Source of the DNA: an uncultured Clostridia bacterium
GTDB taxonomy: Bacteria > Bacillota > Clostridia > TANB77 > CAG-508
Direction of reading: 5' to 3'
DNA length: 44,320 bases
Assembly (NCBI GenBank): GCA_944386735.1
Contig: CALXCH010000003.1
Coordinates: forward strand, 1 to 44,320
Shown here: one piece after another, positions 6,291-39,154 of the stretch
How the letters are laid out: each line of letters opens with the position of its first letter
Position numbering within the stretch: the stretch's first letter is position 1
The notes under the pieces: model-generated
What the model saw: the letters and a program-made list of their open reading frames with translations, nothing else
What the model was told of the DNA's origin: nothing
Database searches by the model: none
Program-made: the position numbers and the translations under genes

Positions 6291-6568
6291 CCTTACCACC
6301 TCTTTATATTTGATAAGCTTATTTTACTACTTGTCCTTCGTGGTTTTTGTCTTTTCTAGTCTGCTAAACTAAAAAAGTTTTTTACATTTTTTTATATATA
6401 TTTTTTATTTTTTTCATAATAATTTAATATACGATTTTTATTTTATTACAGAATATCGAAAAAAGCAATATTTAGGGAAAATGTTCTAAAAAATAATTTT
6501 TATAATTTAAATTTTTTTATTAATATTAAACTCTCTTTATATAACTTTTAATAGAATAAAACCAAAAA

Positions 6569-6600
6569 AATCAGGCTAAATATTTCTATTTAACCTGATT
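6569..6600. terminator. bidirectional rho-independent terminator after the 3023-aa gene
   Basis: 14-bp stem with one mismatch (aatcaggctaaata / tatttaacctgatt), flanked by A7 and T8. Confidence 0.7.
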
Positions 6601-6637
6601 TTTTTTATGATTTAGTATTGTTTATTAGCTTTAACAA

Positions 6638-9600
6638 CTATTTTAATACTTTTTTCTTAATGAAGATAATTCCTACTCCTAAGATTATGAATGAACTAAT
6701 ACCTAGAATAATGTATGGTATGTAATTTAAGTCTTCACCAGTAGGAGGTGTTATTGTAATAACTCTATAGTCATCATCTCCACCTTCTTCTCTTCCATCA
6801 TCACTTGGTACGTAATTTCCTGGTATCGTATAATCATCAGGATTATCTGGCTTTGTTGTTCTTCTTCCTATTAATACATTTACCTCAATATCATTACCAA
6901 AGTCTAGATCATTTGCACTATTTGATAACACTTTAGATACTTCTAATTCTGTAGTATATCTTCCTATTCCCATATTAGCAAAAGCATCTGTCCATAATAC
7001 TTGATTATATTTCTTAATAGCATCATATGCGTCTTGTGACAAATATTGATCATTTAGTAATTGTTCTAGTTCTTCAGGCTCATATTGATGCCAATTCTCT
7101 GGGCTATTTTCTTTATCAAATACTAAATCATTTGACAAGTAATCATGTAGTCTCTTTATTCTTGGTGCTATTAAGCTATTTGGATCATCTGGAGTTCCAA
7201 AGATATAGTAATTTTCATCATTATAGTCTAATTCTGAATCACTGTTATCTGCTATTATTTCATATCTTACAGTTAATGTTGCTCCTTGTATTATTTCGCT
7301 ATCTACTTCTATATGAACATTTCCATCTGGTAAGAATCTTAAATGTTCAATTTCATCTACTCTTGGGTCTCCATCAATTAATACTTGACCATTTGCAAGT
7401 GTTACTTTTACATGAGATATTTGTTTTTCAACTTTAAGGTTTTGTATTGGTCTTCTTATTATACCAAAGTCCATGTTGTCAAATACAAATTTAAGTTCTT
7501 CTCCAAACTTGCTCATATTGTCTAAGTTAACGTCATAATCCTCTTTAATTTCAAATCCTCTTGACCTTGCCTCTATAGCTTTTATTGCATCATCATTTAG
7601 AACATTAGGGTCTGTATTTCCATAATAGTATTCTCTTTCCAATCCAAGTCTATCTTTAAGAAGGTCGTATTTACCATTTCCATCTATTCCAATTTCATCT
7701 CTAGCATCTGACCATCTTGCTGCATTTTCTCCGGATGTTTCTGATCTATACCACCAATCTGTATCTCCTGCTGCTGTAGATTCATTTTCTGGCCTATTTC
7801 CTCTATATATTGTTGACTTATACTTATCTACATCATCTATAACTCTATTTTCCGTTCCATCTGGATTATATATTACACTGTTATTACCATAAGTAAATCT
7901 TAGTAAGTATTTTCCTGGTATTACTCCAGAGAACTCATAATGTCCGTCGTTTCCTGTTGTTTTTGATGCTAGTTCTACTACTGTATCAGTAGCTGATGTG
8001 CCTTGTTGATATAGGTTTGCTATTTCAGATTCCTTTGGTTCCGTTCCTTCTGTTCCTGCTTCTCCCAATATACTTGCATTTGCTAAATCTACATCTGAAT
8101 TAGCATCATAAGATAATACTATTAAGTCTACTGTAACATTTCCTACTGTATTTTCTGTTCCTTGTTCATATTCACCATTACCAATTCTTTCTTTTACTTT
8201 CTTTGTTTCTCCAGTTATTGGATCTGTTACTTCTGTTCCACCATTTTCTAAATCTAGTAAATCTGCTATTGCCTCATCTTCCCATACAGTTCCTGATATT
8301 ACTCTACCTTCTTTTAATTCTAACTTAAATGCTGGTGCACTATCTGTATCATCCTCAAATGTAGTTCTATCTGTTGGTTCTGCTGAACCTGGTCTAGAAT
8401 CTTTATCAACTCCTGCATAATGTACACTAAATCCTGAATCTGAGTATGTTGAGTATGATCCTATTTCTGCGACTGCATCTAATGGATTATTTTCAAATTC
8501 CTCATTATTATCTAATACTGCATTTATTGCACTATTGTTTAATTTATATGTAACATATATATATTTTACTGTTTGAGGTTCTAGGTTTTGATTAACTTCT
8601 TCTATTGTAGCCTTGTTATAATCTCCTACAGCTCCTCCATCAGTATAATTATATGATGTATTTCCACTATCGTCTTGAATGCTATCAATAGTATACCTAT
8701 TATCATACATAACTATAACATTATTTACTTTAGTATAAAGATTTGTCGCTTCATTTCTTAATGCTATCTTATATCTTACATATACTTCTAATTTTCCTTC
8801 ATTTCCAGGTTGTGCATTGTATACTACATCTGATGAATAAATTGGTTGTGTATATTCTGCTGAACCATATTCATTTCCGAATTTTACAGCTACATTAAAT
8901 CCATCACCATATTGACTTTGATTTTCAAATCTTTGGTTATAATTATATGTATGTTCATAACCATTTAATGTTACTTTTACTGTTTCAATGTCCTCTACTA
9001 ATGATAAATCTGGTTGTTCTCTTTCCATAATTCCTAAGTTAATATATGGAATTTCTTCTTTTTCTGTTTTTCTTATATTATCTATTGTATCAAAATCGTC
9101 TGCTAAATATCCTGATTGTCCTTGACTTTGATATGCATCTTTTGTTGTTGCATGCATTATATATTGTTCATCTGTCATGTTTACTGGGAATTTTTGTTCA
9201 TCATATCCATATACAGAGTTTGGTCCATAGTTTAATGTACTCTTATTTTGGCCTATAATGTTACCATTTTCATCTTCATAATACTGGTCTGTATCATAAT
9301 TTAAGTCGTATGTTTTACTTCCCCCATCGTCTCTTGATTCACCAACAGGTCCTGTAGTTCCACTATGTGTTATTTCTGAATATTTTCTATTAAATTCTGC
9401 TCTTTCTGCTTCATTTTCTGCTGCTTTTGAGCTATTTGGATTGCTTGGTGTTAAATCTGTTAATGGTACTGGTTCATAACTCATTCCATTATAAGTAAAT
9501 TGTATATAATAGTTTGTTAATTCATCTATTAAAACATCTATCATTAAGTAATTTCCGTCTGCGTCTGTTAAAATCTCATCTACTGTTGTTCCTCTATTAA

Positions 9601-12600
9601 CAGAATCATTTTCATTAAATGTTTCTTTTGTCTTAAATGGAACTGGATTTCCATTTCTATCTAATAATTTCACAGTTACATTTGCAACTTTCCTATCCGG
9701 ATTATTTTCATCTGAATCTCCTTGTGAATATACATAATCTCTTTCAGATGTTTTACCACTTATCATATCTTCCCATACTGTTCCTGATAATTTAATCCAT
9801 TTTCTTCTGTTTTCAAAGTTTATAATATCATATTCAGCTGCTGGCACATTTGAAGGTAATGATTCTCCTTCTTTTCCTGTTGTGTAATATGATTTTCTTC
9901 TTACTACTTCTACTTGACCCTCATTAGATTGTTCTCCTGAGCCACTGCCACTACTCCAATAAATATAATTTGGATCTAACTCATAACCATATTTATCTAT
10001 ATTTATTGCTGTTTCTATAACTGTATACGTTCCTATTCTTATATTATAGATATTTATTTCTCCATTTTCATCTGTTATAAACTCTGTTGCATCCTCTATA
10101 TTACTTGTGTATTCCATATTAAAGAATTGTACACTACCTGTTACTTGTCTTATAGGATTTCCATTTGCATCAATTCCAACTACATATCCGCCTTCTCCTT
10201 GTAACTTAAAGCTAATATTAGGCATTAAGTTTTCGCTATCCTTATCTTTTTTAATAATCTTTAAGTTACCAGTATATTTAGTATTTTCCATGTAGTATAC
10301 GATTAATTTTCCACCTTCTGTAGGTACTGAAAGATCTATAAGTTCTTCTACATTTTGCTCATATCCATAATTATTATTTATTGTTTCTGTTAAATAATAA
10401 GTTCCTGGTTCTAAGTTTTCAAAAGAATATTTTCCTTCTGTTGTTCTAAATGATTCACTATAACCATTTGGTCCTGTTAATGTTCCTTCGATGTCTATGT
10501 ATCTCTCATAATCGTCTCCATTTTCATGTTCATCTAAGTCTACTTTTAATAGTTCTATAAATGTATTAAAGTTTGTCCACTCAATCGTATCTTCTGTCCA
10601 TATATCTTCATATTTCCAACCTTCACCAGCATCTTCCCAACCACCTTCAGCATTTTGGTGACGGTTTCCTGTATAGTTTGTTGGACATGGGTTTGTACCT
10701 ATATAATAGTAATATGCATATACATATTTCCAATAGTATTGTCTTACAGTTTCTGTTTTTCCTTGTGTTGCTGTTACACGACTTACTCCTCTTTCAAACT
10801 CACTTGCTGTTAAACTTATATAGAAAGTTACATTTCCTGTTCCTGTAACAGAACCTATTCCGTTTCCATTTGCATCACATAATGTATAGCTTAATGTACC
10901 TCCGTCTTTACTATATACAGTTATTCTATAAGGTTCCTCATTAGAATTCGTAGATGATTCAAATGGACCTAAAACATATCTATCTCCTACTTTTTTGTTC
11001 TCTATCTTATCATTTAATTTTGTTAATTCAATTCCTGGAGTAACTACTTCTGTTGATCCATATTCATAGCTAAAAGATGATGAAACAGAATAAGCATATT
11101 CAGAATCTGAACAATTTGCTCCACTCCAACCAGCAGCAGGATAGTCACCACTATCTGAACAAACAGCTGAAGATGTTGGTCCTCCTGAAACAGTAAATCC
11201 ATGTGAAGTTTGTCCATTACCAGTATAATGAAGTCTTATTGCAAAAACATTACTACATGATGTTATTCCTATTATTGCAAATACGAACATTGATACTCCA
11301 AATTTAGTTATATTCTTTATTTTAAATTTAAATTTAATACCTAAGAATACTAGTACTGCTAATACAAATAATATTATTCCTATAGAAATATATACTGCTA
11401 AACCTGTACTTACACCAATAATTAAATCTGCTTGTGAATAATCATCTTCTGATGTATTTCTATTTCCTGGTGTTGAATCTGTATCTTTTGTTCCTGTTAT
11501 ACTTCCTTCTGCGCTTCCTATTTCTGCTGCATTTGTATAAGTTCCAGCATCATCTTCTCCCATTGTTTTTGTTAATGTTAATGTTAATTCTTTGCTTTCT
11601 CCTGGATTAATCACTTGATTCATTAATCCTCTATTTACAAGCACTCCATTTTCATTTGTCCAATTTGTATTTCCATTGTTAGAGAAATCAAGTCCATCTG
11701 GTAAATAATCATATATTTCCTTTACTGTAGCTGGTGATTGTCCCTCATTTGTTATAACTATTTTATATTTTACTGAAACCTGAGCTCCTTCTATTTCTTT
11801 TGCTCTTATTTCAACCCTACCTAATTGTGTATTATCATATGATACCTGCTTTGTTCCATTTACAGTTGTAACTGAAACATCTGTTATATATTTATCTAGT
11901 TTTAAATCATAGCCTTGCCTTTCCATCAGACCAATATCTATGTTATTTGCATCTTTGTTTAAAGTTATTTGGTCTGTAAGTCCAACGTTTACTTTTTGGC
12001 CATCCAGTGTAATAGTCTGATCCATTGCATCTGAATTTATTTCTTCTGATACTCCACTTGCTCTGTATTGTGTTAATAAATAAACTGAAGTATTGTAATT
12101 AAATACAACCACATAATTTCCTTGTTCTATACCACTAAATGTATATCTTCCGTTATTCGTTGTTGTTTGCGCTTTTACATTATTTGAATCTGATAAATCT
12201 ACTAGCATTACTTCTATACCACTTATCAAAGATTCACTATCTTGTCTAGCTCCATCACCATTTGCATCATTCCAAGAAATTCCTGAAATAGAATATTTAG
12301 CATCTGGATCACTTGGAGTAGTTGGATTATCTGGATCTGTTGGTGTATCTGGGTCTTCTGGGTCTGTTGGTGTGTCTGGATCCTCTGGCTTTTCTTCTTC
12401 AGTATATGGAACAATTATATGTGTTACAACATTTGATGATTTTGTTTCTAATGGTGCTTCATATATTCCCTCATTTTCACCAAATGAATCTCCTACATCT
12501 ATTTTAGCTCCTTGTACTATTGCGCTATTCTCAACCTCTGTGTTCTGATATACATATCCTGCTATTGTCTTAATTTGGATATTTATAGTTTCTTGATATG

Positions 12601-15600
12601 GAATCCATGTATATATATCTACATTTGGTAACTTGTTGCCATCAGAATCCGAATTTGATGATTTGATATTTTCCGTTTTTGTTTTCTTTTCGCTATATCC
12701 AGCAGGAACTCTTCTACCTTCTGAATCTACTTCAGTTACTCTTTCAAAATAATCATATGTAATAGTTTGTGGTTTTACGTTTTCTGGTAGATAATCTAAA
12801 ATATTAACATATAAACCACTTGTTTTATTTTTTATTCCTGATATACCTGTACATGTTACAGCAATATTATAATTTATTTCCTCTCCATATTTTACCTCTT
12901 CACCCTCGTTGTCAGAACTCATTTCTATTACTACATTGTTAAATCCGTATTGTATTCTGTTTTCATTCATATTATATGTAATGTCTTTAGTTGTTACCGT
13001 AGCAACTGTTTTTAATTCTGCATTTCCATCACTATATTGTTCTCTAAGATATGTATCATCTCCTTTACGCACACCTATTTTATATGTACCACTTTTTGTT
13101 GCCTTAATTATAACCTCATTACCATTAAAGCTATAAGTATAACCTCCTAAGTCTTCTACTCCTGAAAGACCTAAATTATATATTTTTGTATCATATTCTG
13201 ATGCATAAGCACCTACATACACATCTCCATTATCTAATTGTTCTTGTGTTGGAATAAAAAGCTCTGGCAATTTTACTTTTATTGTTACTTCCTCTCCACT
13301 AGGGTTGTCTAAATTAATTCCATATGCATATTGCTCTTCTAAAACTGTGGCTGATCCTTCATTAATTATAGACCATAAAAATGCTTTTACTTCTCCTTGC
13401 TTAATTTTGTTGTTCAACTTATAATCAGATACTTCTGTATTTCCTATATAAGTTTTTATATTTGTTGTTATATCTTTTTCTTCTTCTAAATCTTCAACTT
13501 GTACCTCATAATATTTATTCACAGTTTGTCCGGCTTTTATTGTTCCAACATCTATTTCTGTTTCTTTAAGATTTTCATCAAAATTATATTCATATATTCC
13601 TGTTGATAAATCTCCAAATGTTGAATTTAACTCTCCGTATTTCAATCCATCTGGTATTGTTCCTACTATTCTTACATTATCTATTGGATCACTTGTTGTA
13701 TTTTTAATTTGTACATTATATTTTATAAACTCTCCTTCATATACAGAATCTCCATCTTTTAGTTCAGATTCACCTTTCATAGGAGTAACTTTTATTTGTA
13801 ACCCATCTATTTGTTCTTGTGTTGCAGCTACTAAAGCTTCTTGTTTTGCTATTTCTTCTACTTGTCCTACAATTGCATCTACTAAATTTCCGTCACCATT
13901 TGCATCTGTCGAAGCATTTGCATTAGTATCTTCACTTTGAGTCTTTTGGAAATTTTCTATTATAATTTGTTTTTCTATATTTCCTTGCTCAACACCACCA
14001 TAGTTATTTGTATAATCTACATTAATTTTATCTACTCTAGTTTCAACATCTGTACTTAATATTATTGATGCCGGTATTTTTATATTAGTTGTTATTCCTA
14101 AATTATTCTCATTATAAGCTGTCTCATTTCCTTCTATATTTACTACTATACTTGTAGTTCCGTCTTCTGCTGTCTCTACATATGGTTCTTGCATATTTAA
14201 ACTATTTGAATAAAGCATAGAACTATTTCCTAAAATAACCTTTTCTACATCATTTGGTAATTTTATTCTTATTGTTGGATTATCGAATAAGTTGTTTGCT
14301 ACTGATGAAGAATTTAATGAAATATCAAATGTTACATCATTTTGTTTTTCATTTGTCCAATCTGTATTATCTACATTTACTTCCACATTAGTTGTAGCGT
14401 CTTTTACTTCTATTGTATTTTCTTTTTCATTTCTGTAGCTCTCTTCTTCTACTATTTGTGTTGCTACATTATTATTTCCTTGATTTTCTTCTGTATTTAC
14501 ATTAACGTTTCCGCTGTTTAAATTTGGACTATTTAAATTTAAACTTCCACTTTGTAAGTAGTTTATAGTGTCTTCTACATTTACTTGTTCTTCTTTTTCA
14601 TTTATTCCTACTATAGTTACTTTTCTTGTAATATCTTTATCATCTAAATATGACTCATCACTTTTTATTTTCTTTACATTTTCTATATGTAATATTCCTT
14701 CATTTATAATATTACTTGTTTTTATAGTTATGCTATTTACATCATCCCCATATGTAACTATATATTCTCCGTTTTCGTCAAATTCTGTATTATTATCAAT
14801 GGTAGCAATAACATTATTATTTCCATCTAATATTTCTAAGCTACCATTTTCTCCTAGAACATTTAAAATATCATTCTTTAATATTTTTGTACTTTTATAA
14901 TAAACATCATTTTGTCTTACAAATGAATTTTCTTCTGTTATGTTAATCTTTTGATGAGCACGTTTATCACTTATTGTTATTTCATTATTTTCTGTATATT
15001 CTGTATCATAGGCAGTTCCATTTATAACATTAGATTTGATGTATCCATTATATATATCGCTTGTATTAGTAGCAATAGAAGTTAGCTCTCCAACATCTTC
15101 TGTAACCTTTTGATTTAATGCTCCTTCTCCACTTACTTCTCTATTATCATCTGTAAACAACACAGCTTTATATGATACATTACAGAATAAATCCCTTTCT
15201 GGCTTATCTTGTGTATAAGTATCATAACAAGAAATAATTATGTATTCATCTCTATCATTATCACTTGGTCTTGTATTATATATAGGTTGTCCATTTTCAT
15301 CTTCATTGCTTGTTCTTATTGTTGCTATTCCAGAATTAGAATCATAGCTATAATCTACATTTATATTAGTTGTTCTTCCATTTGTTGCTTTTGTACCTTC
15401 ACTAATTACTTTTACACTATTTGGATACTTTCCATCAATTGGGCTTAAAGCAACATTAATCTCTGAATTTTTTATAGCATAGAATTCGTCTCCATATTTA
15501 ATTCCCGTTCGTAAGCTATATTGTACTAAAGTACCTTTTGTCCCATCAGTGAGCTCATAATTTACATATTTATTAAAAACTCCTTCAAGGATAGCTTGTT

Positions 15601-15709: not shown

Positions 15710-15856
15710 GATACTTTTCCCCCATATGTAAAATTTCTTATATTAATATTACAAGCTTTTTCAATCAATTTCAATGTGTATTTTTTCCTAATATGGAAAA
15801 ATAATCCTTAAGTCTTTAGGGAAAGTCATTTGCGCGCTAAATATTAAAAAACCTTT

Positions 15857-15886
15857 ACATTTTTATTACATTTTTAGACATTTTTA
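15857..15886. repeat. three exact copies of ACATTTTTA at 10-11 bp spacing, upstream of the 3023-aa gene
   Basis: Copies start at 15857, 15868 and 15878. Confidence 0.7.
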
Positions 15887-15949
15887 TACTAAAAGCATCT
15901 AAACCCTTTATTTGCGTAGCAATTACAAATGTTACAATTAAAAGAAAAA

Positions 15950-15980
15950 GAAGTAGAAAACTTTAAATATTTTCTACTTC
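15950..15980 (-). terminator. rho-independent terminator after the 1301-aa gene
   Basis: gaagtagaaaa / ttttctacttc forms an 11-bp perfect stem. TTTTTCTTTT follows on the minus strand. Confidence 0.7.
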
Positions 15981-16012
15981 TTTAATAATTTCTTTAATTA
16001 GTTGCCCTATTT

Positions 16013-19000
16013 CTATTTGTCTTTATTTCCTAAAGCTCTTTTCTTAATTAAGAATACTCCAACTCCTAAGATAACTAATGCTACTACTCCAACTATAGTT
16101 GGTACGATAAATGCTAAGTTATTACCTGTTGATGGTGTAACAATAACTGTCTCTGCCATGTTGTCGTCAATTTCTGTATGTCCACTACCTGGAATATAAT
16201 TTCCTGGTATTTCAGTTGGCTTAGCACCACCTGTCTTATCTAATGTTACAACCTCTGTTTCGTTATCCACATAAGTTTCATTTGCTGTTGATAATAATCT
16301 AGATACTGCTAAATCTGCTGCTGCTTCTTCAGTTGGTTTTAAGTTATGTTCTTTTAAGCTTTCTGTATAAAGAATAGTCTTTTCATTTATAGTAGAATTT
16401 TCATTATTGTATACAACCTCTGCAACTAAATCTTTAATCTCATCTGGTGTCTTAACTTGCCAATCTGGATTTGCTGCATTATCAAATGCCCAATCATTAT
16501 CTAAGTAATCTATTATAGCTGATGGAGTTATTGTTACAACGTCTCCTTCTACAATTCCATATTTATAGTAGTTTTCAGATAAGTAATCTAATTCACTTAA
16601 GTTTGTAGCTTTTACTTCATAACTTACCTCTAATGTTGCTCCTTGAACTATTTCGTTGTCTATTTCAAGTCTTACATATCCATTTTGAGGATTTGCAGTT
16701 TCTGATGGTCCCATATGAGTTAAGTGCTCTGCTTGTCCTGTTATATTACCATCTTCATCAAATGTTGCATCTATTATTACTTGACCATTAGCAAGTGTAA
16801 CTTTTACTGATTTTACTCTCTTAGTCATTGCTAATTTTTGTCTTGCTCTTTCTACTATACCAAAGTCAACATTATGAATTTCGTAAGTATATCTGTCTCC
16901 TGATGAAGCTGTATAAACACTATCATATTCTACACCAATTCCCATTGTTGGAGTTGTAGAATTCATCTTGTCTATTGTTGTTTGTGTACTATTTGTTATA
17001 TGCTTAATTTCATCATCAATTTTCTGTCTTAATTCATAATCATCAATAGCATCTGTTTTTCTTGTATCTACATCTTCTTTGAACCATTGTTTATTTGTTT
17101 GATCTCTTGAGCTATCATATACTGTTCCTTTATAGTTTTGTACTGTATAAGTGTCATCTCCCCAAGTATATGTTAATGTATAATCACCTGGTATATAATC
17201 TGTAATTTGGAAATCACCATTACTATCTGTTGTAGTAGTATACACTTTTCCGCTTCCAGTATTTTCTGTTAATGTAACCTCTACACCTTCAATACCTGGT
17301 TCACCATCTTCATATGCTCCAGATCCTTGTCTTATTTCTCCTGTCATTAATTCTCCTGAAGTTTCATCTAAGAATACTTTACCATCTAATTTTCTTGCAT
17401 CTGCAACTTCTAGTTTAAATCCAGGTGCTGAATCTGTATCATCTTGATATGTTGCTTCATTTCCTGGAGTTGCATTTGCTGGGTTAGAATCTTTATCTAT
17501 ACCTGCATATACATTTCCATCAGCATCAAATGTTGAATAAGAATTTATTTCTACTACATTATCTAGAACTTCTCCATCATTTATTAAGTTTACTACTTGC
17601 TCTCTACTTAATTGGAATTCTATATAAATATCAGCTGTACTTTGTGGGTCTAATCTAGTATTTGTATCTATTACAGTTTTTGCATATTCATCATTGTATG
17701 CTGTATCTGTATGAGTAAGTTCGTCTCCTGTTATACTTCCATTTTCATCTAAGGCTGTTCCAACTCTTAGAAGTGTATAGTTACTATCATAGTAGTCTAC
17801 TATACTATTTATTTGACTAATTAAGTTTGTAGATTCATTTCTTAAAGCTATTCTATATGTTGCATAAACTTTTAATTCTTTACTTGGATCCTCTTCATTT
17901 ATATATTCATAATCTGCTTTATAAATTGCTCTTGTATATGACATTGAACCATATTTATTTCCAAATTTTACACCAACATTAAATCCATCACCATATTCAC
18001 CTTGGTTCACAAACCTTTGTGAATAATCATATACATGTTGATATCCGTTAACTGCTACTCTTACATTTTGTAAGTCTTTAATTAATGCCATATCTGGTTG
18101 TTCTCTTTCATATAAACCTTGGTTAATCCATTTTATTTCTTCCATACCATATGTGAAGTGGTCCCAAATACTATAACCAGTTTCATCTGTATTTCCTGTA
18201 ATTAAGTACTGACCATTATTAATTAATGTTGCTGTGTGCTCATTTTGGTCTAAGTTATAACTTAAGTCATAAACTTTATTTCCATTTTCATCAAGAGTAA
18301 TACCTGTATCTTCTGTACTTCCTCCTTCTACAGAACTGAACTTTTTATTAAACTCATCTCTTACTGTAGGGTTTTCTGCAGATTTAGAACCATTGTCACG
18401 GTCTATGTGTGGTATTACATTTGTATAGGTTAATCCGTCATATTCAAACTCAATATAATAATCTTGTAATTTTTCAATTAAGACATCCATAAACAAATAT
18501 GCTCCACCATCTGCTGTTGTTGTTTCCATTACAGTTTCACCTGTTGTTCTATCTTTTAATCTTACTGTAATTCCATCTAGTAAAATATCTGCATCATCAT
18601 AGTCATTATCTTTAAATAAATCATTTCTATATGATTGTTTTCCTGATATCTTATCCACCCAAACAATTCCTGATAATTTTACATAGATTTGTTTGTTTGC
18701 AATTTGGAACTCTGTCGTATCACCTGCTGTTATGGTTGTTACTTGTCCATCAGTTAAGAATTCATATCCATAATTTGGGTTTTGAGTTTCATAAGCTGTA
18801 TATGTTCCTACTACTAAACCTTCAATATATATTTCACCGTTTTCATCTGTTATGAATTCTGTTGCCTCTTCCCTTGTATCTACATATGCTATGTTACCAT
18901 TTTCATCTTGTTTTATATATTTTCCAAGCTCATTATTCATAATATAGAAACCTACTCCAGGTAATTTTACTTCTGTATTATCTTTATTTACTTTTACTAT

Positions 19001-19918
19001 TCTTAATTTTCCTGTTGTTGGTATATCATAATCAAATGTTAAATCTATAGTCTGAGTAATTTTATAAGGTTCCCTAATTAACATGTTTTGTAAATATCCT
19101 TCTGTTGCTTCTAAGAACCATATATTTACACCTAATAACTCTACTTGAGATTTAGCTGTAACTCTACTTATTTTAGTAACACTTCCATCTATTGGTATTG
19201 AAATATAAAAGTCAGTTCCTGATTTTATACCACTAGCATCAAAGAAGTTTTCTGTTGTTCCAGAGAAGCTACTATATAATTTTTCTGATACCGGATTAGA
19301 ATCTTGGTCATACACATTTACTTCTGTTAATGTTCCTGCAAAAGTCCAATTAAATGGTCCTATCCTCATATAACTTTTTCCGTCTTTTTGATATGCCACT
19401 ACTTGAATATTGTCTTTATTAGTATTATCTGTTGCATTATCAATATTTGCAATCTGATTTGCATAGTTTATCGCTGCTTGGTCTGCCCAAGTTGGTTTTC
19501 CATGTGCACTTCCTGCAAATCCTTTATATAGTCCTGCATGATATTGTCCAACATTATTCATCCAAGTATATCCAAAATTCCATACACCATTTGCAACTGG
19601 ACCAGCTTCCTTTGGTGACCCATTATTTTGAGATAATATATATGCAAATCTAGCATTGTCCAAACTATCTATTGTCTTTCCCGTTTGATCTGTTGATTTA
19701 GTTCCTTCTATTTTTACATTTGATATAACTTTGTAATACATAAGACTTTTTATAGATTGTCCATGCTCCATACAAAATATATTATTACTACTATAATATT
19801 GGCTACTTGTTAGTGTAACAGTCTGCCCTACATAATATGCAGTTGAGATTGTTGCTATACCTAATATTGCTATAATTGTTGTGACCATAGCAATTGCTAT
19901 TTTCTTTAATCTACTCAT
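16013..19918 (-). CDS. B-type large surface protein (1301 aa): SpaA/Cna-B-like and SdrD-B-like domains with a TPSTG sorting-like signal
   Basis: Signal peptide MSRLKKIAIAMVTTIIAILGIATISTA. Motifs GKLRIVKVNKDNTE...GTYTAYET, KLSGIVWVDKISGK and LDGKVFLDETSGEL. C-terminus VTPSTGNN, then TM, then KKRALGNKDK. Strong SD AAAGGAGGGG lies 21 nt after the upstream gene's stop. Confidence 0.85.
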   Translation of the reverse strand: MSRLKKIAIAMVTTIIAILGIATISTAYYVGQTVTLTSSQYYSSNNIFCMEHGQSIKSLMYYKVISNVKIEGTKSTDQTGKTIDSLDNARFAYILSQNNGSPKEAGPVANGVWNFGYTWMNNVGQYHAGLYKGFAGSAHGKPTWADQAAINYANQIANIDNATDNTNKDNIQVVAYQKDGKSYMRIGPFNWTFAGTLTEVNVYDQDSNPVSEKLYSSFSGTTENFFDASGIKSGTDFYISIPIDGSVTKISRVTAKSQVELLGVNIWFLEATEGYLQNMLIREPYKITQTIDLTFDYDIPTTGKLRIVKVNKDNTEVKLPGVGFYIMNNELGKYIKQDENGNIAYVDTREEATEFITDENGEIYIEGLVVGTYTAYETQNPNYGYEFLTDGQVTTITAGDTTEFQIANKQIYVKLSGIVWVDKISGKQSYRNDLFKDNDYDDADILLDGITVRLKDRTTGETVMETTTADGGAYLFMDVLIEKLQDYYIEFEYDGLTYTNVIPHIDRDNGSKSAENPTVRDEFNKKFSSVEGGSTEDTGITLDENGNKVYDLSYNLDQNEHTATLINNGQYLITGNTDETGYSIWDHFTYGMEEIKWINQGLYEREQPDMALIKDLQNVRVAVNGYQHVYDYSQRFVNQGEYGDGFNVGVKFGNKYGSMSYTRAIYKADYEYINEEDPSKELKVYATYRIALRNESTNLISQINSIVDYYDSNYTLLRVGTALDENGSITGDELTHTDTAYNDEYAKTVIDTNTRLDPQSTADIYIEFQLSREQVVNLINDGEVLDNVVEINSYSTFDADGNVYAGIDKDSNPANATPGNEATYQDDTDSAPGFKLEVADARKLDGKVFLDETSGELMTGEIRQGSGAYEDGEPGIEGVEVTLTENTGSGKVYTTTTDSNGDFQITDYIPGDYTLTYTWGDDTYTVQNYKGTVYDSSRDQTNKQWFKEDVDTRKTDAIDDYELRQKIDDEIKHITNSTQTTIDKMNSTTPTMGIGVEYDSVYTASSGDRYTYEIHNVDFGIVERARQKLAMTKRVKSVKVTLANGQVIIDATFDEDGNITGQAEHLTHMGPSETANPQNGYVRLEIDNEIVQGATLEVSYEVKATNLSELDYLSENYYKYGIVEGDVVTITPSAIIDYLDNDWAFDNAANPDWQVKTPDEIKDLVAEVVYNNENSTINEKTILYTESLKEHNLKPTEEAAADLAVSRLLSTANETYVDNETEVVTLDKTGGAKPTEIPGNYIPGSGHTEIDDNMAETVIVTPSTGNNLAFIVPTIVGVVALVILGVGVFLIKKRALGNKDK

Positions 19919-19939
19919 TTGAACTTCCCCTCCTTTCTT

Positions 19940-22900
19940 TTATATTTCCTCTTTATTTTTTCTTCTTTTTATTACTATAAAAACTATTACTCCTAAAACT
20001 GCAACTACTGCTATAGTTATTCCGATATAAACTGCTCCACCCGTTCTAAGTCCTAAAAGAACATCTGCTGAGCCCATATCATTTTCGCCATTTGCTCTAT
20101 TTCCTGGTGTTGAATTACTATCTGCTAATCCTAGTTCATTATAGCTTTCCTTTATCTCTGCTGTATTGTTAATTAATCCCAAATTATCATTTGTCATGTT
20201 TTTAGTTAATGTTAATGCTACTTCTTTTGATTCTCCCGGTTTAATTACATCATTTGCCAAACTTGCATTATATAGTCCATCTGAAGTTTGATACCAATCT
20301 TTATTCATCTCTGAGTTGAATTTCAAATCATTTGGCATATAATCTACAATGCTTCTAACATATCCGTCTACTTCTCCTACGTTGCTTACTCTAATTTTGT
20401 ATTCTATTAATACCGTTGCTCCATTTACTCTTTTTGCATCAAGTTCTGCCCTTGCTAATGTTTCATCATTATATTCTTTCACTGTACTTCCAGTTGAATC
20501 TTGTATAATTATTTTGCTAACAAATTTTTCAAGTTTTAAATCAAAGTTTTGTAATTTTACAAATCCTATATTAATATCTGAAACATTTCCTTCACTCATA
20601 TCTAGAATATCTGTTGATGCAACACTTTGAGTTTGTCCATCTACATTTAAGTCCTTCATCATTGCGTCAGAATTATTTGTTTCACTTACACCTTCTGCTT
20701 TATATTTTGTTAATGTATATGCTGAATTATCATAATCAAATATTACAATATATTTTCCTCTTCCTATATGGTCTAATACATATACACCATTTTCATTAGT
20801 TGTTGCTTCTAATATGCTTCCATCTTGCTTACTTACTAAATTATTTGTTTCTGTATTATATAATTGTACTTTTACTCCACTTATTAATTGTTCTCCACTA
20901 TCTTTTTGTCCATTTGCATTTTCGTCAAACCATGCAACACCTGTTATAATTCCATTTCCATTTGCCACATCATTATTGCTTCCATTATTTTCACCTGGAT
21001 TTTCAGTTCCTCCACCTTGATTCTCATTTGCTTCAATTATATGTGTAATCTCTGGTGCTGTAGCAACTGTTTCAGCTAATACTTCTGCATGTGCTACATT
21101 TGTAATTGCTTCTGCTTCAGTTCTTCCTTCAGAGAAATTAACAACTGTTTCAATTTCTACTGTGTTTTCAGAACCGGCAGCAATATTACATCTTAATTCA
21201 ATATTATTATTTCCTGCTAATTCTGTAGCTTCTTCACCATCAAATGTTACTTTATTTACTGTTAAGCTTGATGGTATAGTATCTTTTAATACTAAATCAC
21301 TAATATCTTCTGTTCCGTTATTTTTAATATTTATAACATATTTTAATGTATCTCCAGCTTTTAAATAATCTCCATCTGGATCAGCTGTCATTGATAAAGA
21401 TATATCAACTTTTCTTACATCATCTGTTACTACATTTGAACGATATTCATCTTTTCCTATGTCTGCTACTACAGAGAAATTAACTGCTGATGCATTATTT
21501 AATTTATCAATCTTCATATCATAGCTTAATACTTTATTTTGTCCTGGTTCTAATGAACCTATATTTATATTATCTTGATAATCTATTAATTCTGAAGTAA
21601 CGTTACTACTATTATTTGAGGTTAACTCATCTTCTGTAACCTCTACTGGTTCTCCTACTGTCTCTACTCCTGAACTTACGCTTTGAAGATCTTCATCTGT
21701 TACTTCTTCTGAAGACATATTTGTAATCAAGTTTAATCTAGCTACTTCTAAAGTGTCTGGTAAATTTGTTTTAACTGTTACATCTTTTTGTGTCTCATCA
21801 GAAATATTTTCTACTATAGCTAAATATTGGATTACTCCTGCTTCATATAAATCAACACTTCTATCTGTTACTCTTTTTACAGTTACACGAATATCTCCAC
21901 TTGCTGTTGTTAAACTTGTTTCACCAGATTCTTTAGTTACATCTCCATATGTTATACTTGATTTACTTACTAAATTTGTTCCTGCTGGTGTATCATTATT
22001 TACTCTTACCTCATACTCTTTTGTTACAACTTCTCCTACTTTTAAAGTATCTATTGTATCTTCATAAGTTCTGCTATCTAATTCTTTATAGTAAGAAGCT
22101 CCTGTATATTCAAAGTTATCTTCGGGTTCCACTAATGTAGTTCCTTCTGGTACTATTCCTTTAACTGCTACGTTATTTATATCAACACTACCTTCATTTG
22201 AAACTTCTATTTTATATTTAATAACTTCACCATTCTTAACTGTTCCACCATTATTTTGGTTTGCATCTGCTACACTAGCTGTTAATTTTGTCTCTAAATC
22301 AGGTCCTACACCTGTTTCTAAATCAATCTTTGTAGCTTTCATTTGATTTGTAGCTTTTGTTAATGAATTTTGATAATCTACTGTATAGTCTTGGCTAGCT
22401 TCTTGGTTATATTCTAGAGAAGCTGGCACATTTGTTGTATAAGTAGCTTCTATACTTGCTCCAGATTCCATTGTAGGTACTTCAATTAAATATTTTCTAA
22501 CTTTTGCGCCATCTGTTATATTTTCTTGCCATCCATTTTCTCCATTTTGTACGTCATCTGTTGCATTTTCATTTTCTGTATAATATACTTTTGCACCTTC
22601 TACTCCTTGAACATTAAGTCCTTGAGTTACAGTTGTATCTATATTATTTTCATTACTTTTTGTTGGAAATGTTCCTAAAACTTTTACATTTTCCATAGCA
22701 TTTTCATTACTATTTATTACTTCTATTTGTGTTTGTAAATCTTTTGCATCTGTTCCTCTATCAAGTGTTACTACTTTTGTATCTTGTTCTCCAATTGTTT
22801 CTACACCTAAATCGGAAATAGAATGAATTACTGTCATATCTGTTGGTGCAACTACTCTTATATCTTTATCAGAAGTTATTACTTCTCCTTTATTTTCTAC

Positions 22901-24757
22901 TGTCATTGTTACTTTTGCATCTTGTGTTGCTGTTCTTCTATTTACCTCTGCAGTAGCATCTATAACAAGTATAGCACCATCTATTCCAGCCTCTTTATAA
23001 CTTGTTTGCTTTCCTGCAAGCTCTACTGTAATTGTTCTTCCATTCGCACTATAATTTGCAATAGATAATTCAGTTTCATAAATTAAATCTATACTATTTA
23101 TTGTAATGTTTTCTACTGGTTCTGGTAATTCAAAAGTAATTTTTGGATTTTCATATAAGTTATATTGCTCTTGATTATTCTTTAATGTTGCTCTTATTTC
23201 TACATCATTTGGTATTACTGTTGATAATGTATCTTTATTTACTTCTAAATCAGCTTCTGTTTTTGCTTCTTCTAATCCTATTTTTGCTTCCATATTATTT
23301 GTTACTGTTCCATTGTAACTAACAGTTGCATTTGATACTAATTCTACTGCATTTTTAACACTTTCTTCTTGTCCAGCTTTTATTGTTTTTGTATGTATAA
23401 ATACTAAATCTCCTTCAGCTATTGGCGTTGTCGTTTTTATTTCTAAGCTTGATGGTTCTTTTCCAGTATAATCAATTATTAAATTTCCATTTTCATCTGT
23501 TTGTGTTTGTGAATTTATTGTTCCTAATACCATACCACTTTCGTTTAATATTGTTATACTTCCATTTTGACCTAATATTTTATCAAAACTACTCTTTGAT
23601 ATAGTTGTTTTATTATAAACAACATTTGCTGCAAGTGTTCCACCATCTACTAAATTATAATAACTTGCATTTTCTTTTACAGAAATACTTTCTTCACTAT
23701 TTGCTAAGTTTACGCTTAATTTTGTTTTTGTTTCAAATGCTCTATCTAAAGAAGCATTTATTTTTCCTTTATAAATTGAACTTTCTGTAGCTGTATTACT
23801 TATTTGAATTAAAGAATCTTTTTCCTCTGCTCCTATTTCTATTGTATTTGAAACTTTTATTTCTTTATCATTATATAATTTTACAGTTTCTTCTATCGGT
23901 AATCTTGCATTCTCCAAGTTTTCATCTTTATCATAAACTAAAGTTAGAATTACATTTTCACATCCTGATTTTTTCCATAAGATTTTGTTTTCGTTATTTG
24001 GTTCGTTTGTAAATTTTAAAGTTACTTTGTCTTCATCACTGTTATAATCAAAATGTGTCATTGTATTGAAATTAGCTTTTGTTACAACTTCTGGAATGCT
24101 TTTTGCTTCTGGTAAAGCAACATCTGTACTTATTTCTTTTATTGGATAATTATTTTCTTTTAATCCCATATTCATAGAAATTTGCACAACTCTTTTTTCT
24201 TCACCATTTACTTTAACAACTTTATTTGTAATTACTTCTGCTGTATTTTCTACACTTTCTTCATTATTGTTTTCGGCATATTCTAACTTAATTTTTCTTG
24301 TTGCCTCAATATTTATGTCTTTTTCTGTACTATCTCTATAAATACCTGTTAATTTTAAGCTTGATTCCGCACTTAATAAACCTGCATCTAAACTATCATC
24401 TTTTACAGGTTCTATTTCTACATCAATACTTGCTGTACTTCCTGCATTTATTTGATTTAGTGTTATTTTATTACCTTCTATTTTATTTACGTATTCACTA
24501 GTAGATTTTTTTAATTTAAAATTACTATTTTCTAAAGTAATTTCCCCATTAAAATATCCTTCATTTTTTACAGTTATTGTTAATGTTAATAGACTTTCAC
24601 TTTTTAATTCAGCTGTATATTCTATATTTCTATGATTAGTAGAAATATTTTCAGCTGCTAAACTTACAAAGCCTACTCCAACATAAATAAAATTAATCAT
24701 TGTTAGAGTAACTAACAATAACATTACTGTTATTATTTTTATAATTTTACTTTTCAT
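19940..24757 (-). CDS. A-type large surface protein (1605 aa): multiple DUF11-like beta-sandwich repeats plus one SdrD-B-like domain, C-terminal TM anchor
   Basis: SD AAGGAGG and a signal/anchor N-terminus. DUF11-type motifs (GEVIKYKIEVSNEGSVDINNVAVKGIVPEG, GDTLKYVINIKNNGTEDISDLVLKDTIPSSL). SdrD-B-like GVAWFDENANGQKDSGEQLISGV. C-terminus NSTPGNRANGENDMGSADVLLGLRTGG, then TM, then KRRKNKEEI. Confidence 0.85.
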   Translation of the reverse strand: MKSKIIKIITVMLLLVTLTMINFIYVGVGFVSLAAENISTNHRNIEYTAELKSESLLTLTITVKNEGYFNGEITLENSNFKLKKSTSEYVNKIEGNKITLNQINAGSTASIDVEIEPVKDDSLDAGLLSAESSLKLTGIYRDSTEKDINIEATRKIKLEYAENNNEESVENTAEVITNKVVKVNGEEKRVVQISMNMGLKENNYPIKEISTDVALPEAKSIPEVVTKANFNTMTHFDYNSDEDKVTLKFTNEPNNENKILWKKSGCENVILTLVYDKDENLENARLPIEETVKLYNDKEIKVSNTIEIGAEEKDSLIQISNTATESSIYKGKINASLDRAFETKTKLSVNLANSEESISVKENASYYNLVDGGTLAANVVYNKTTISKSSFDKILGQNGSITILNESGMVLGTINSQTQTDENGNLIIDYTGKEPSSLEIKTTTPIAEGDLVFIHTKTIKAGQEESVKNAVELVSNATVSYNGTVTNNMEAKIGLEEAKTEADLEVNKDTLSTVIPNDVEIRATLKNNQEQYNLYENPKITFELPEPVENITINSIDLIYETELSIANYSANGRTITVELAGKQTSYKEAGIDGAILVIDATAEVNRRTATQDAKVTMTVENKGEVITSDKDIRVVAPTDMTVIHSISDLGVETIGEQDTKVVTLDRGTDAKDLQTQIEVINSNENAMENVKVLGTFPTKSNENNIDTTVTQGLNVQGVEGAKVYYTENENATDDVQNGENGWQENITDGAKVRKYLIEVPTMESGASIEATYTTNVPASLEYNQEASQDYTVDYQNSLTKATNQMKATKIDLETGVGPDLETKLTASVADANQNNGGTVKNGEVIKYKIEVSNEGSVDINNVAVKGIVPEGTTLVEPEDNFEYTGASYYKELDSRTYEDTIDTLKVGEVVTKEYEVRVNNDTPAGTNLVSKSSITYGDVTKESGETSLTTASGDIRVTVKRVTDRSVDLYEAGVIQYLAIVENISDETQKDVTVKTNLPDTLEVARLNLITNMSSEEVTDEDLQSVSSGVETVGEPVEVTEDELTSNNSSNVTSELIDYQDNINIGSLEPGQNKVLSYDMKIDKLNNASAVNFSVVADIGKDEYRSNVVTDDVRKVDISLSMTADPDGDYLKAGDTLKYVINIKNNGTEDISDLVLKDTIPSSLTVNKVTFDGEEATELAGNNNIELRCNIAAGSENTVEIETVVNFSEGRTEAEAITNVAHAEVLAETVATAPEITHIIEANENQGGGTENPGENNGSNNDVANGNGIITGVAWFDENANGQKDSGEQLISGVKVQLYNTETNNLVSKQDGSILEATTNENGVYVLDHIGRGKYIVIFDYDNSAYTLTKYKAEGVSETNNSDAMMKDLNVDGQTQSVASTDILDMSEGNVSDINIGFVKLQNFDLKLEKFVSKIIIQDSTGSTVKEYNDETLARAELDAKRVNGATVLIEYKIRVSNVGEVDGYVRSIVDYMPNDLKFNSEMNKDWYQTSDGLYNASLANDVIKPGESKEVALTLTKNMTNDNLGLINNTAEIKESYNELGLADSNSTPGNRANGENDMGSADVLLGLRTGGAVYIGITIAVVAVLGVIVFIVIKRRKNKEEI

Positions 24758-24970
24758 AATAAACCTCCTTAGTTCATACTATCTCTATTTACTATTATAA
24801 CCTTTATTGGTAGATTTTTCAAGGTTTTTGTGCATTTTTTTGAACTTTTTATGTAAATTTTTCCTTTTGAATAAATTTTTTACCTATACTTGTAACATTT
24901 TATATTTTGTCTGCATATTATATTTCATAGATAAGATTAATTTGCATATATTTAAGTAGAGGTGATTTAT

Positions 24971-25417
24971 TTGGATAATAATTTTAATATAGATAATAAT
25001 ACAATGAATAAACTAAATGATATGATGAAAAATGGAGACGTTAAAGATTTAATTTCTAAAATTCCTCCAGAAATGATACAAAATTTTTCGTCTATAATGA
25101 ATAACAACGGTAGCAACAGCAACAACAATAGCAACATTAATACAAATGATAATGAAAACAATAATAGCAATAACTCTAACAATAATAATAATTCTAATTC
25201 TTTTGATTTTAGTAATATTGATATGAATACTATTATGAAAATGAAAACTATTATGGAAAAAATGAATAATACAAATGATCCTAGGAGTAATTTACTTGCT
25301 TCTTTAAAGCCATATCTGCGTGATAACAAAAAGGAAAAATTAGACCAATATGCTAATCTAATCAATTTTGCTAAAATTGCCGAAATTTTAAAAAATGATA
25401 ATAAGGAGCCTAAATAA
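24971..25417 (+). CDS. small Asn/Ser-rich low-complexity protein, function unknown
   Basis: SD AGAGGTGA, then 5 nt, then TTG 24971 (track start GTG 24962 lies inside the SD). Central poly-N/S tract (NNNGSNSNNNSNINTNDNENNNSNNSNNNNNSNS). Structured C-terminus DPRSNLLASLKPYLRDNKKEKLDQYANLINFAKI. Confidence 0.55.
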   Translation: MDNNFNIDNNTMNKLNDMMKNGDVKDLISKIPPEMIQNFSSIMNNNGSNSNNNSNINTNDNENNNSNNSNNNNNSNSFDFSNIDMNTIMKMKTIMEKMNNTNDPRSNLLASLKPYLRDNKKEKLDQYANLINFAKIAEILKNDNKEPK

Positions 25418-25815
25418 TGCCAGTTTTCCCTTTCTCTCCTTTCTATCCTAATTATTATAAACGTTATTATCCTCATTATTATACAAATAATGGGGATATT
25501 CAAAATAACTCTAATCCTAATAAAGATAATGAAAATCAAAGCCAAGAAGAAACAAACGAAAAGGATGAAAAAAGAGGACAAGAAAGAGAAAGTAGAAATA
25601 GCAATAAAAAAAGAGCACCTAAAAATAATTCCTTTGCTAACATTAATCTTTCTGCATTACTAGAATCCGATTTAAATTCTCCAGTTGTAGAAATATTAGG
25701 TATAAAATTATATTTAGATGACCTTATTATAATTGGTTTATTATTTTTTCTTTATAAAGAAGATGTACAAGATGAAATTTTATTTGGTATTTTACTATTG
25801 TTATTACTAAGTTAG
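25417..25815 (+). CDS. small Tyr/Pro-rich protein with a hydrophobic C-terminus, function unknown
   Basis: Its ATG overlaps the upstream stop (TAATG), and SD AAGGAG lies 8 nt upstream. N-terminus MPVFPFSPFYPNYYKRYYPHYY. C-terminal hydrophobic LIIIGLLFFLY...LFGILLLLLLS. Confidence 0.55.
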   Translation: MPVFPFSPFYPNYYKRYYPHYYTNNGDIQNNSNPNKDNENQSQEETNEKDEKRGQERESRNSNKKRAPKNNSFANINLSALLESDLNSPVVEILGIKLYLDDLIIIGLLFFLYKEDVQDEILFGILLLLLLS

Positions 25816-38503: not shown

Positions 38504-38830
38504 AATATATCATTCTCCTCTTTCTTTTGAATTATCTCATATTTTTATCATAATCTAGAACATATTTTAATTCTTTGTTTACAAATAAAAAAATCAATCT
38601 CCCATAAATAATATACAATATTTTTTGTACTTTTGCAATAATCATCTACCTTTGTAAAGTAATTATAATATAGTTGTAATATAACCGTAATATAATTGTT
38701 GCATCTAATTTTAATTCTTTATTCTATTTGAAATAAGGCACCCACAACCTTACTAGCTTTAGACAGTGGGGTAAGGTTGCCAAAAATAGATTTTTTGTGT
38801 TACACTATCGATATGGGTACATAGTTATTT

Positions 38831-39067: not shown

Positions 39068-39154
39068 AAACAATTTTGATAGGAATACACATTTTGGACA
39101 GATGGACATTTTGTTTGCTCTGAAGAATGCAATTTATAATATGGATTCTGCCTA

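Follow-up and report, generated by a model that had tools for sequence, protein, structure and literature searches.

A duplicated gene pair for giant surface proteins, one with a thioester-domain-like head, at a conserved locus of uncultured gut Clostridia

Three consecutive minus-strand open reading frames (ORFs), encoding proteins of 1605, 1301 and 3023 aa, lie in the window analyzed here, a stretch of 44,320 nt from an uncultured Clostridia bacterium (GCA_944386735.1, contig CALXCH010000003.1, positions 1–44,320, forward strand) that represents a Firmicute chromosome segment of low GC content (26–31%). All three giant proteins carry a signal peptide as well as a C-terminal hydrophobic segment followed by a basic tail. 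We refer to them as A1, B1 and A2::B2, the last combining an A-type and a B-type moiety in a single chain. The genes and their expression signals are the following.

24794–24822, minus strand: sigma-70-like promoter match upstream of A1, TTGAAA-17-TATAAT, 11/12 (consensus match; putative function)
19940–24757, minus strand: A1 gene, 1605 aa (ORF scan)
19919–19939, minus strand: A1–B1 spacer of 21 nt with the Shine-Dalgarno sequence AAAGGAGGGG for B1 (sequence)
16013–19918, minus strand: B1 gene, 1301 aa (ORF scan)
15947–15983, minus strand: terminator-like hairpin after B1, a 14-bp perfect stem followed by a T run (inverted-repeat scan)
6638–15709, minus strand: fused A2::B2 ORF, 3023 aa (ORF scan and BLASTP)
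6564–6605, minus strand: terminator-like hairpin after A2::B2, a 19-bp stem with a T run (inverted-repeat scan)

An original prediction, made from the sequence alone, had described this block as a tandemly duplicated two-gene (A+B) adhesin module. The three ORFs are exactly as it stated, all peptide strings it quoted are found in the translations, and the 21-nt spacer with its AAAGGAGGGG element and the terminator between B1 and A2::B2 (hairpin and T run at 15947–15983) are present. The promoter-like element, immediately 5' of A1, is the top sigma-70-like match in the whole 19.7-kb scan. Upstream of both operons, an Rfam search for a riboswitch (c-di-GMP or other) gave no match, and a search for invertible-promoter repeats returned the terminators as the sole inverted repeats.

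Tandem duplication of the A+B module is supported by protein and DNA alignments, which divide the 3023-aa ORF as follows.

11315–15709, minus strand: A2 moiety, aa 1–1465, colinear with A1 (BLASTP and profile alignment)
6641–11314, minus strand: B2 moiety, aa 1466–3023, colinear with B1 (BLASTP and profile alignment)

For the N-terminal part, BLASTP aligned A1 residues 157–589 with residues 28–534 of the large ORF (23% identity, 1e-16) and residues 1271–1599 with residues 1141–1461 (40% identity, 6e-66) and failed to align the middle of A; a profile-profile comparison with hhalign of 30 A1-type and 30 A2-type sequences gave one colinear alignment running end to end, from 1–1603 to 1–1465 (1295 columns, E 1e-197). 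For the C-terminal part, B1 residues 232–1296 matched residues 1729–3022 (BLASTP, 31% identity, 2e-142), and the heads of B1-type and B2-type proteins aligned as profiles (E 1e-44). Both predicted colinearities were thus recovered. At the DNA level, the two modules share stretches of 70–76% identity, up to 231 nt long and 8.6–9.4 kb apart. Compared with the nearest relative (locus L020), protein identity is 96% for housekeeping proteins, 89% for A1 and 90% for B1, but only 55% for A2 and 67% for B2. Divergence is thus much faster in module 2 than in module 1, which would be expected of a surface variant exposed to diversifying pressure; a fast-diverging module beside a conserved one suggests antigenic or ligand diversification, with a bearing on host specificity and on phage or immune pressure.

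A1 is organized as a signal peptide, a stalk that is all beta and contains CLIPPER/DUF11 domains, a C-terminal module of SdrD_B and CLIPPER-like type, an LRTG motif, a transmembrane helix and a basic tail. Pfam profiles detected DUF11 (PF01345, now CLIPPER; 49.5 bits, cutoff 24.6) and SdrD_B (PF17210; 45.1 bits, cutoff 29.7) in A1, SdrD_B (53.5 bits) and DUF11 (42.1 bits) in the 3023-aa ORF and, weakly, bMG10 and CLIPPER_2 in A; the NCBIfam model TIGR01451 matches A1 and the 3023-aa ORF. DUF11 was given its new name, CLIPPER, when it turned out to be a stalk domain with an isopeptide bond (PMC12617251). Residues 36–600 of A1, modelled with AlphaFold2 (pLDDT 85), form about five beta-sandwiches in a string, for which Foldseek returned tandem Ig-like arrays (PrgB, antigen I/II C123, integrin alpha legs and SdrD/SdrG/Ace). 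In this modelled N-terminal region, Foldseek found no distinct adhesive head. With its Ig-like N-terminal third in the model and CLIPPER and SdrD_B further along according to Pfam, A is stalk-like, as had been proposed, and the anticipated vocabulary of DUF11, SdrD_B and SpaA was recovered in the Pfam scan, all above threshold. The length of A1 orthologues is tightly conserved (1598–1660 aa in about 75 loci). Within A2, an in-frame 27-nt tandem repeat (12301–12388, 3.3 copies) just before SdrD_B encodes a Pro/Asp/Thr-rich linker, PEDPDTPTDPEDPDTPTDPDNPTTPSDPD, which could serve as a length-variable hinge.

B1 is organized differently at its N-terminus: after its signal peptide come a head resembling a thioester domain and a CnaB/SpaA isopeptide domain, and then two SdrD_B and CLIPPER-like modules, TPSTG, a transmembrane helix and a basic tail. 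The features of its N-terminal part are these.

19019–19837, minus strand: B1 head, aa 28–300, divergent class II thioester-domain-like (AlphaFold2, Foldseek and conservation)
19772–19774 and 19088–19090, minus strand: candidate bond pair, Cys49 and Gln277 (conservation and motif)
18692–19009, minus strand: B1 CnaB/SpaA-type domain, aa 304–409, with K309/E377/N408 (Pfam, profile and alignment)

An AlphaFold2 model of B1 residues 26–305, built from 29 homologues (pLDDT 92.7), contains a beta-barrel, a bundle of helices, a beta-sandwich and a hairpin of great length. In a Foldseek search against the PDB, the sole significant match was 6fwy, the class II thioester domain (TED) of E. faecium TIE86 (E 7.9e-7, probability 1.0), with the runner-up at 6e-3, and the order of secondary structures in the B1 head fits the class II TED fold (beta-barrel, three-helix bundle, beta-sandwich inserted as a slipknot). 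The only residues conserved in all TEDs are those that form the bond, Cys, in the motif [YFL]C-Phi-zeta, and Gln, in Phi-Q-zeta-Phi-Phi, and in class II TEDs the bond Gln is located on a long twisted hairpin from the inserted beta-sandwich (PMC6194298). B1 I-F-C49-M-E fits the first motif, and all of 29 close and 27 diverse homologues keep its Cys; Y-L-Q277-N-M-L, 228 residues past C49, fits the second and is likewise invariant, with Q277 placed at the two long strands of the model (E224–246 and E254–275). Among 27 homologues of 35–52% identity, C49, G187 and Q277 are the only invariant head residues, and among 20 heads of 19–43% identity C49, G187, F237 and Q277 are. In addition, a profile of diverse full-length B proteins matched the BaTIE structure 6fwv colinearly over the TED and the first CnaB domain (90–424 to 29–344, E 5.7e-8).

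Several observations weigh against this assignment. The superposition on 6fwy is globally poor (TM-score 0.24, root-mean-square deviation 12 Å). The Pfam TED model PF08341 matched none of the three window proteins and only one of 20 diverse heads, non-significantly (E 0.13), and the NCBIfam model (TQXA) matched none of these proteins or heads. A head-only profile found no TED chain in the PDB, only spurious Rab matches; phmmer searches of the PDB sequences with A1 and B1 were uninformative. The TQxxPhiW motif of helix alpha2 reads VANGVW in B1 and V-A-N-[GA]-[VI]-W in close relatives, so that the W is kept and the TQ lost; more distant B homologues read QxAxW at this position, and the motif is dispensable in TEDs (PMC6194298). 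Finally, the upper lobe of the B2-type head is smaller by about 100 aa, and the B2 Cys is not aligned with C49. Among 49 B2-type heads, a Cys is nevertheless present in 48, typically in F[ST]GGPxGxGxC[MVQ]NHG, and the Gln in all 49; in the window, these residues are C1517 and Q1685. Based on the residue conservation and the modelled fold, B is probably a very divergent TIE-type adhesin with a class II thioester-like head, whose conserved Cys and Gln are predicted to form the thioester. This head had gone unnoticed in the original prediction, and it lends substance to the proposal that B is the adhesive partner.

The stalk of B begins with the CnaB domain, for which the SpaA model (PF17802) scored 37.7 bits in B1 (cutoff 23.1) and 47.1 bits in the 3023-aa ORF. 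Its isopeptide triad, K309/E377/N408, is invariant in B1-type alignments, and CnaB profile matches in the PDB were the pilin and adhesin domains 9lty, 4oq1 and 3phs as well as BaTIE 6fwv. The rest of B consists of two SdrD_B and CLIPPER-like modules (B1 SdrD_B score, 41.4 bits), each closing with a DSxPGN...EDD signature, and the last of them is also found at the C-terminus of A (BLASTP 1e-10). B1 orthologues, like those of A1, are tightly conserved in length (1293–1345 aa).

Both protein types end in a sorting-signal-like anchor.

19943–20050, minus strand: A1 C-terminal anchor, LRTG (aa 1570–1573), transmembrane helix at about aa 1578–1596, KRRKNKEEI (motif and alignment)
16016–16138, minus strand: B1 C-terminus, TPSTG (aa 1261–1265), transmembrane helix, KKRALGNKDK (motif and alignment)

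B2 ends similarly in TPPTG, a transmembrane helix and KKKVLK, and the B consensus is [VI][TAI]P[ASNP]TG, with T1264 and G1265 invariant. In 107 A-type proteins, the consensus is ...SADV[IL][IL][SG][IVL][RKS]TG followed by a transmembrane helix and basic residues. The xPxTG recognition motif of sortase substrates, expected 17–45 residues from the C-terminus, is thus absent from A for want of the Pro. The earlier description of A as ending in an anchor with a degenerate xxTG motif is thus correct for A, and has to be amended in that B also has the motif, in the better form [VI]TPxTG. C. difficile SrtB substrates, with their (S/P)PXTG motif, have the same tripartite C-terminal signal as A and B and no sequence relationship to them beyond the motif. 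TPSTG and TPPTG of B differ from C. difficile SPSTG and PPxTG in the first position alone, and the proximity of TPxTG to the clostridial (S/P)PXTG makes B a plausible sortase substrate. The [SG][IVL][RKS]TG of A parallels the Pro-less NVQTG of C. difficile CbpA, which was not cleaved by SrtB in vitro (PMC4155245), and A may for this reason stay helix-anchored in the membrane; the class II TED adhesin of pLS20 provides a precedent for display without a sortase (PMC8092201).

No sortase-like (TLxTC-type) ORF was found in the window, and no sortase or accessory gene within 10 kb in 83 related loci, where three TLxTC-like matches proved to be antisense junk ORFs. The window does encode an 812-aa protein (36065–38503, minus strand) with a transglutaminase-like core and repeated Ig-like segments that ends in SILPKTG, a transmembrane helix and KYKQYDGYTKNIK, and that is the sole LPxTG protein of the window. 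Given its canonical LPKTG, a sortase gene is almost certainly present elsewhere in the genome. The claim that no sortase accompanies these proteins therefore holds locally, for the window and for 10 kb around the 83 loci, but almost certainly not genome-wide.

The second module departs from the first in that its A and B moieties are joined.

11234–11425, minus strand: fusion junction, aa 1429–1492 (translation and comparison with 27 junctions)

At this junction, VSTG and LAVYISIGIILFVLAVLVF, corresponding to the A2 anchor, are followed by a basic loop, KFKFKIKNITK, and by FGVSMFVFAIIGITSCSNVFA/IRLHY, where the helix ending VFA/IR is signal-peptide-like with an AxA-type signal-peptidase site (slash); a GGAG lies 5 nt ahead of an internal ATG. 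Fused orthologues of 2156–3176 aa occur in 27 other loci, and fused proteins of 2200–3135 aa are also among the representatives of protein clusters at 50% identity. All 27 fusion junctions compared share the same order of xxTG, a transmembrane helix of about 22 aa, an 8–16-aa basic loop, a signal-like helix, a small-residue cleavage-type site and mature B. Since anchor helix, basic loop and B signal peptide are retained, fusion would leave the membrane topology unchanged. On a neighbour-joining tree of B1 from 53 genomes, parsimony requires at least 15 changes among the unfused, fused and absent states of the second module. Close relatives may differ strongly in their second modules, and some of these changes are therefore probably allele replacements. 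An assembly error as the source of the fusions was rejected, as intact fused ORFs with the same junction logic are found in independent assemblies. In one locus (L076), no module but the first is visible, and there it is this first one that is fused as A::B (2784 aa, 6530–14884). The recurrence of A::B fusion is evidence, of the Rosetta-stone type, that A and B act together.

The anchors and fusions also bear on whether the proteins build a sortase-polymerised pilus, with B as a thioester tip pilin (Cpa-like), A as shaft or base pilin and a pilin-specific sortase encoded elsewhere. The CnaB domain of B matches the pilin domains 9lty, 4oq1 (RrgC-like) and 3phs, tip pilins with a TED such as Cpa are known (cited in PMC6194298), and A and B both end in xxTG, a transmembrane helix and a basic tail. 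Moreover, the FCT pilus of S. pyogenes (Cpa tip, FctA shaft and SrtC) resembles A+B in the genetic coupling of a thioester adhesin with another structural protein, of Ig-like type. However, neither the window nor any related locus has a class C sortase or SipA-like gene within 10 kb, where FCT has its pilin sortase and SipA; at 1300–1600 aa the would-be subunits are many times the size of pilins; the A motif has no Pro; and each protein has its own membrane anchor. In the fused chain, the "tip" would be C-terminal to the "shaft" with a membrane hairpin between them, so that the A/B gene order and the fusions fit side-by-side display better than head-to-tail polymerisation. We consider a pilus highly improbable.

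To place the locus in context, 87 related loci were retrieved, and ORFs were called in 83 of them and labelled by BLASTP against the window proteins; all relatives are metagenome-assembled genomes (MAGs) or metagenome contigs of uncultured gut Clostridia. In every related locus in which both are visible, B is the next gene after A. The gap within the first pair has a mode of 20–21 nt and lies between −17 and +26 nt in 75 of 78 cases, and later pairs are typically separated by 1–26 nt. The pairing thus proved as obligate as the original prediction had it. A recurrent order, mreC-mreD-PBP2-minC-(two small opposite-strand genes)-A-B-[A-B, A::B or nothing]-spoIIE-WG-409aa-acpS, is retained even where B is only 35–37% identical to B1. 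The architecture is A-B-A-B in 23 loci, with a fused second module in about 27, a single module in four (L028, L034, L062 and L078) and a fused first module in one (L076). In L085, a second B-like gene without an A of its own (1563 aa, 15270–19961) follows the first pair.

This recurrent order argues for a clade-wide core locus with a variable second copy rather than an inserted island, and the view of the block as an island between minC and spoIIE had to be given up. Acquisition by horizontal transfer was likewise rejected, as the locus is syntenic across the clade and the higher GC content of the block (31% versus 27%) follows its amino-acid composition.

The fixed position between mreBCD-PBP2-minC and spoIIE in the whole clade, the fixed protein lengths and the large share that 18 kb takes of a probably small genome (MreB-bearing contigs reach up to 1.48 Mb) could point to a structural envelope or spore-surface layer, such as an S-layer-like coat or a spore appendage, instead of adhesins. 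This is very unlikely: synteny with these neighbours does not imply a shared function, the best promoter match is of the vegetative sigma-70 type, module 2 is dispensable (it is absent from the four single-module loci), and a thioester-like head, CnaB, SdrD_B and CLIPPER are hallmarks of adhesin stalks.

A more serious alternative is that A and B act independently, as two ordinary fibrillar adhesins anchored by sortase that happen to share an operon, their pairing inherited from one ancestral operon and the fusions neutral losses of a stop codon, tolerated because the internal signal peptide still works. Signal peptide and sorting-signal-like C-terminus are indeed complete in each protein, known monomeric adhesins use the same domain vocabulary, and a sortase is implied by the window's LPKTG protein. 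Many unfused second modules have just 1–4 nt between stop and start codons, so that fusion is mutationally easy. On the other hand, order and spacing are conserved in all 87 loci, and extra copies come as whole pairs, with L085 as the sole exception. The tight length ranges of A1 (1598–1660 aa) and B1 (1293–1345 aa) differ from what is seen in adhesins of variable repeat number, fusions are kept as intact ORFs of 2800–3176 aa in many species, and A has no recognisable adhesive head in the modelled region. On balance, we regard independent action as somewhat unlikely.

Strict pairing, duplication as a unit, conserved lengths and recurrent, topology-preserving fusions argue that A and B act together. 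We therefore favor, with a probability of roughly 55%, a co-expressed two-protein adhesin module in which B presents a covalent-binding head on an isopeptide-stabilised stalk and A is a companion stalk. The window would hold two paralogous copies of this module, which is core and syntenic in a clade of uncultured low-GC gut Clostridia. A and B would be co-transcribed and translationally coupled, and consequently made together, at the same membrane site and in a 1:1 ratio. After cleavage of the B signal peptide, Cys49 and Gln277 of the distal head are predicted to form a reactive thioester that would bond covalently to a target amine. The head would be borne by a stalk of the CnaB domain with its isopeptide triad and the two SdrD_B and CLIPPER-like modules, tethered through TPxTG, the transmembrane helix and the basic tail, with a sortase from another locus as the probable agent, or else by nothing but the helix. 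A would contribute a stalk of about 1600 aa whose C-terminal module and anchor are of the same kind as those of B, with xxTG only, and the two may work as a pair, either as a two-chain fibre or as an adhesin with a companion stalk. In the second module, stop codon and spacer would have been lost to give a single ORF, with A2 outside, its anchor helix, a cytoplasmic basic loop, the B2 signal peptide, B2 outside and a final anchor helix; signal peptidase at the retained AxA-like site, or internal initiation, could regenerate two proteins and free the B2 head.

Counting against the favored module are also the lack, in 107 A-type proteins, of the Pro that sortases normally need, the derivation of every relative from a MAG, and the fact that A and B each have their own signal peptide and anchor. 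The last point means that display needs no complex, and that side-by-side or independent display is possible. Of the proposed single fibre, with A as membrane- or wall-rooted stalk and B as distal adhesive partner, the stalk-like A and the adhesive B have found support, while a rooting of B by A is conjectural. A still bolder version is unlikely in our view: an obligate two-chain fibre of a new kind, in which a membrane-anchored, headless, Ig-like and sortase-independent A stalk with its Pro-less xxTG is physically paired with a wall- or membrane-tethered B whose head belongs to a previously unrecognised, highly divergent thioester branch, made in about half of the species through a polytopic precursor of about 3000 aa that is split by signal peptidase at an internal signal peptide, as a "polyprotein" route to giant Gram-positive adhesins, and serving as the dominant host-attachment organelle of the clade.

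Comparison with known systems helps to separate what is familiar from what is not. Like B, class II TIE adhesins (BaTIE/BasC of B. anthracis, EfmTIE86, SaTIE and TIE-pLS20 p34) have an N-terminal head after the signal peptide, with the [YFL]C-Phi-zeta Cys and, about 190–230 residues further on, the Phi-Q-zeta-Phi-Phi Gln on a long hairpin from the inserted beta-sandwich, followed by CnaB isopeptide stalk domains; the fold match to 6fwy and the colinear profile match to 6fwv belong to this group. Unlike them, B has a head undetected by Pfam and NCBIfam, with TQxxPhiW degenerate in B1, is two to three times longer, carries TPxTG in place of LPxTG and, in contrast to the TIE proteins of the cited TIE literature, always follows a partner gene of its own (1600 aa), to which it is often fused. 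Fibrillar adhesins with CLIPPER (DUF11) and SdrD_B share with A and B the CnaA/CnaB-like Ig stalks with likely isopeptide bonds (PMC12617251), but are single chains with one head and one anchor, whereas here an essentially headless A and a headed B form an invariant pair.

Paired adhesins of mycoplasmas (P1 and P40/P90 of M. pneumoniae, the P97/P102 paralogue pairs of M. hyopneumoniae) offer an analogy: two large surface proteins, each with a C-terminal transmembrane anchor, are encoded by adjacent co-transcribed genes and form a heteromeric adhesin, duplication has affected the pair as a whole, and one of the partners arises by cleavage of a precursor. They have no homology to A and B, and mycoplasmas are devoid of a wall, sortases and thioester or isopeptide domains.

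Fibrillar TIE adhesins are known as a general class, and so are the domain types. New are the invariant pairing of a stalk gene with an adhesin gene, the repeated fusion of this pair through a junction of anchor, loop and signal and its core-genome position in an uncultured gut clade, together with a thioester-like head beyond current sequence models and unusual sorting motifs. The family is large and unannotated. Against 1.84 billion representatives at 50% identity, the B core matched 1151 clusters, 549 of them below 1e-30. The family is confined to uncultured gut Clostridia of human, mouse and rabbit; A and B each have hundreds of close relatives, with names no better than "hypothetical" or "SdrD B-like domain-containing protein". 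One genome per species was scanned with a profile, which gave 331 relatives; the top 80 are all MAGs of uncultured Clostridia, Clostridium sp. or Eubacteriales, recovered from the gut of human, mouse and rabbit. Of a genome of probably about 1.5 Mb, the block occupies 18 kb. A head that does work as a thioester domain would extend covalent "chemical harpoon" adhesion to a commensal clade, through a branch missed by current domain models. The pairing and repeated fusion of A and B provide a natural experiment on whether giant Gram-positive adhesins are heteromeric and whether precursors can be split by internal signal peptides.

In several MAGs, though not in the window, large genes (227–1134 aa) whose products have a type IV pilin-like N-terminus (KGITLIALVITIIVLLILAG...) lie in or beside the adhesin locus: L005 (1824–3749 and 14595–16037), L025 (7746–11150), L034 (21743–23086), L049 (2313–3755 and 4209–4892), L070 (2748–4412), L076 (15122–16534) and L077 (13778–15856).

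In the window, the minus strand upstream of the block carries pcrA ... mecA ... radC-mreB-mreC-mreD-PBP2 and then minC, before the three giant ORFs, beyond which come spoIIE, a WG-repeat protein, a 409-aa protein and acpS. Firmicutes usually have minDE after minC; here, the adhesin locus takes that place, and minD and minE do not follow minC (25817–26431, minus strand) in the window or in related loci. Between minC and A1 sit two small plus-strand genes divergent from A1 (24962–25417 and 25417–25815; 151 and 132 aa), which are kept at the same position in nearly all related loci and for which a Pfam search gave no match. Of the two products, one is rich in N and S and ends in a conserved helix, and the other combines a Tyr/Pro-rich N-terminus with a hydrophobic segment at the C-terminus; a 204-aa minus-strand ORF overlapping both genes (24967–25581) is probably spurious. 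An Rpn-family gene for a recombination-promoting nuclease/putative transposase (26763–27635, plus strand) lies between PBP2 and minC, a position it shares among related loci only with L020, the closest relative; L077 has an Rpn-like ORF at another place, downstream of B1.

Searches of the entire window for tRNA genes and Rfam families gave no match. Near the mre operon, a 706-aa protein (33790–35910, minus strand) with six ricin-type beta-trefoil lectin repeats and an NlpC/P60 peptidase domain is likely another cell-surface or glycan-binding protein. The 1.8 kb at 38500–40300 have no ORF of at least 80 aa, and the GC skew flips sign within this region; a 78-aa ORF there (38831–39067, plus strand) contains IEIDQNHIHYMIE, which is reminiscent of a fragment of an IS200/IS605 Y1 transposase.

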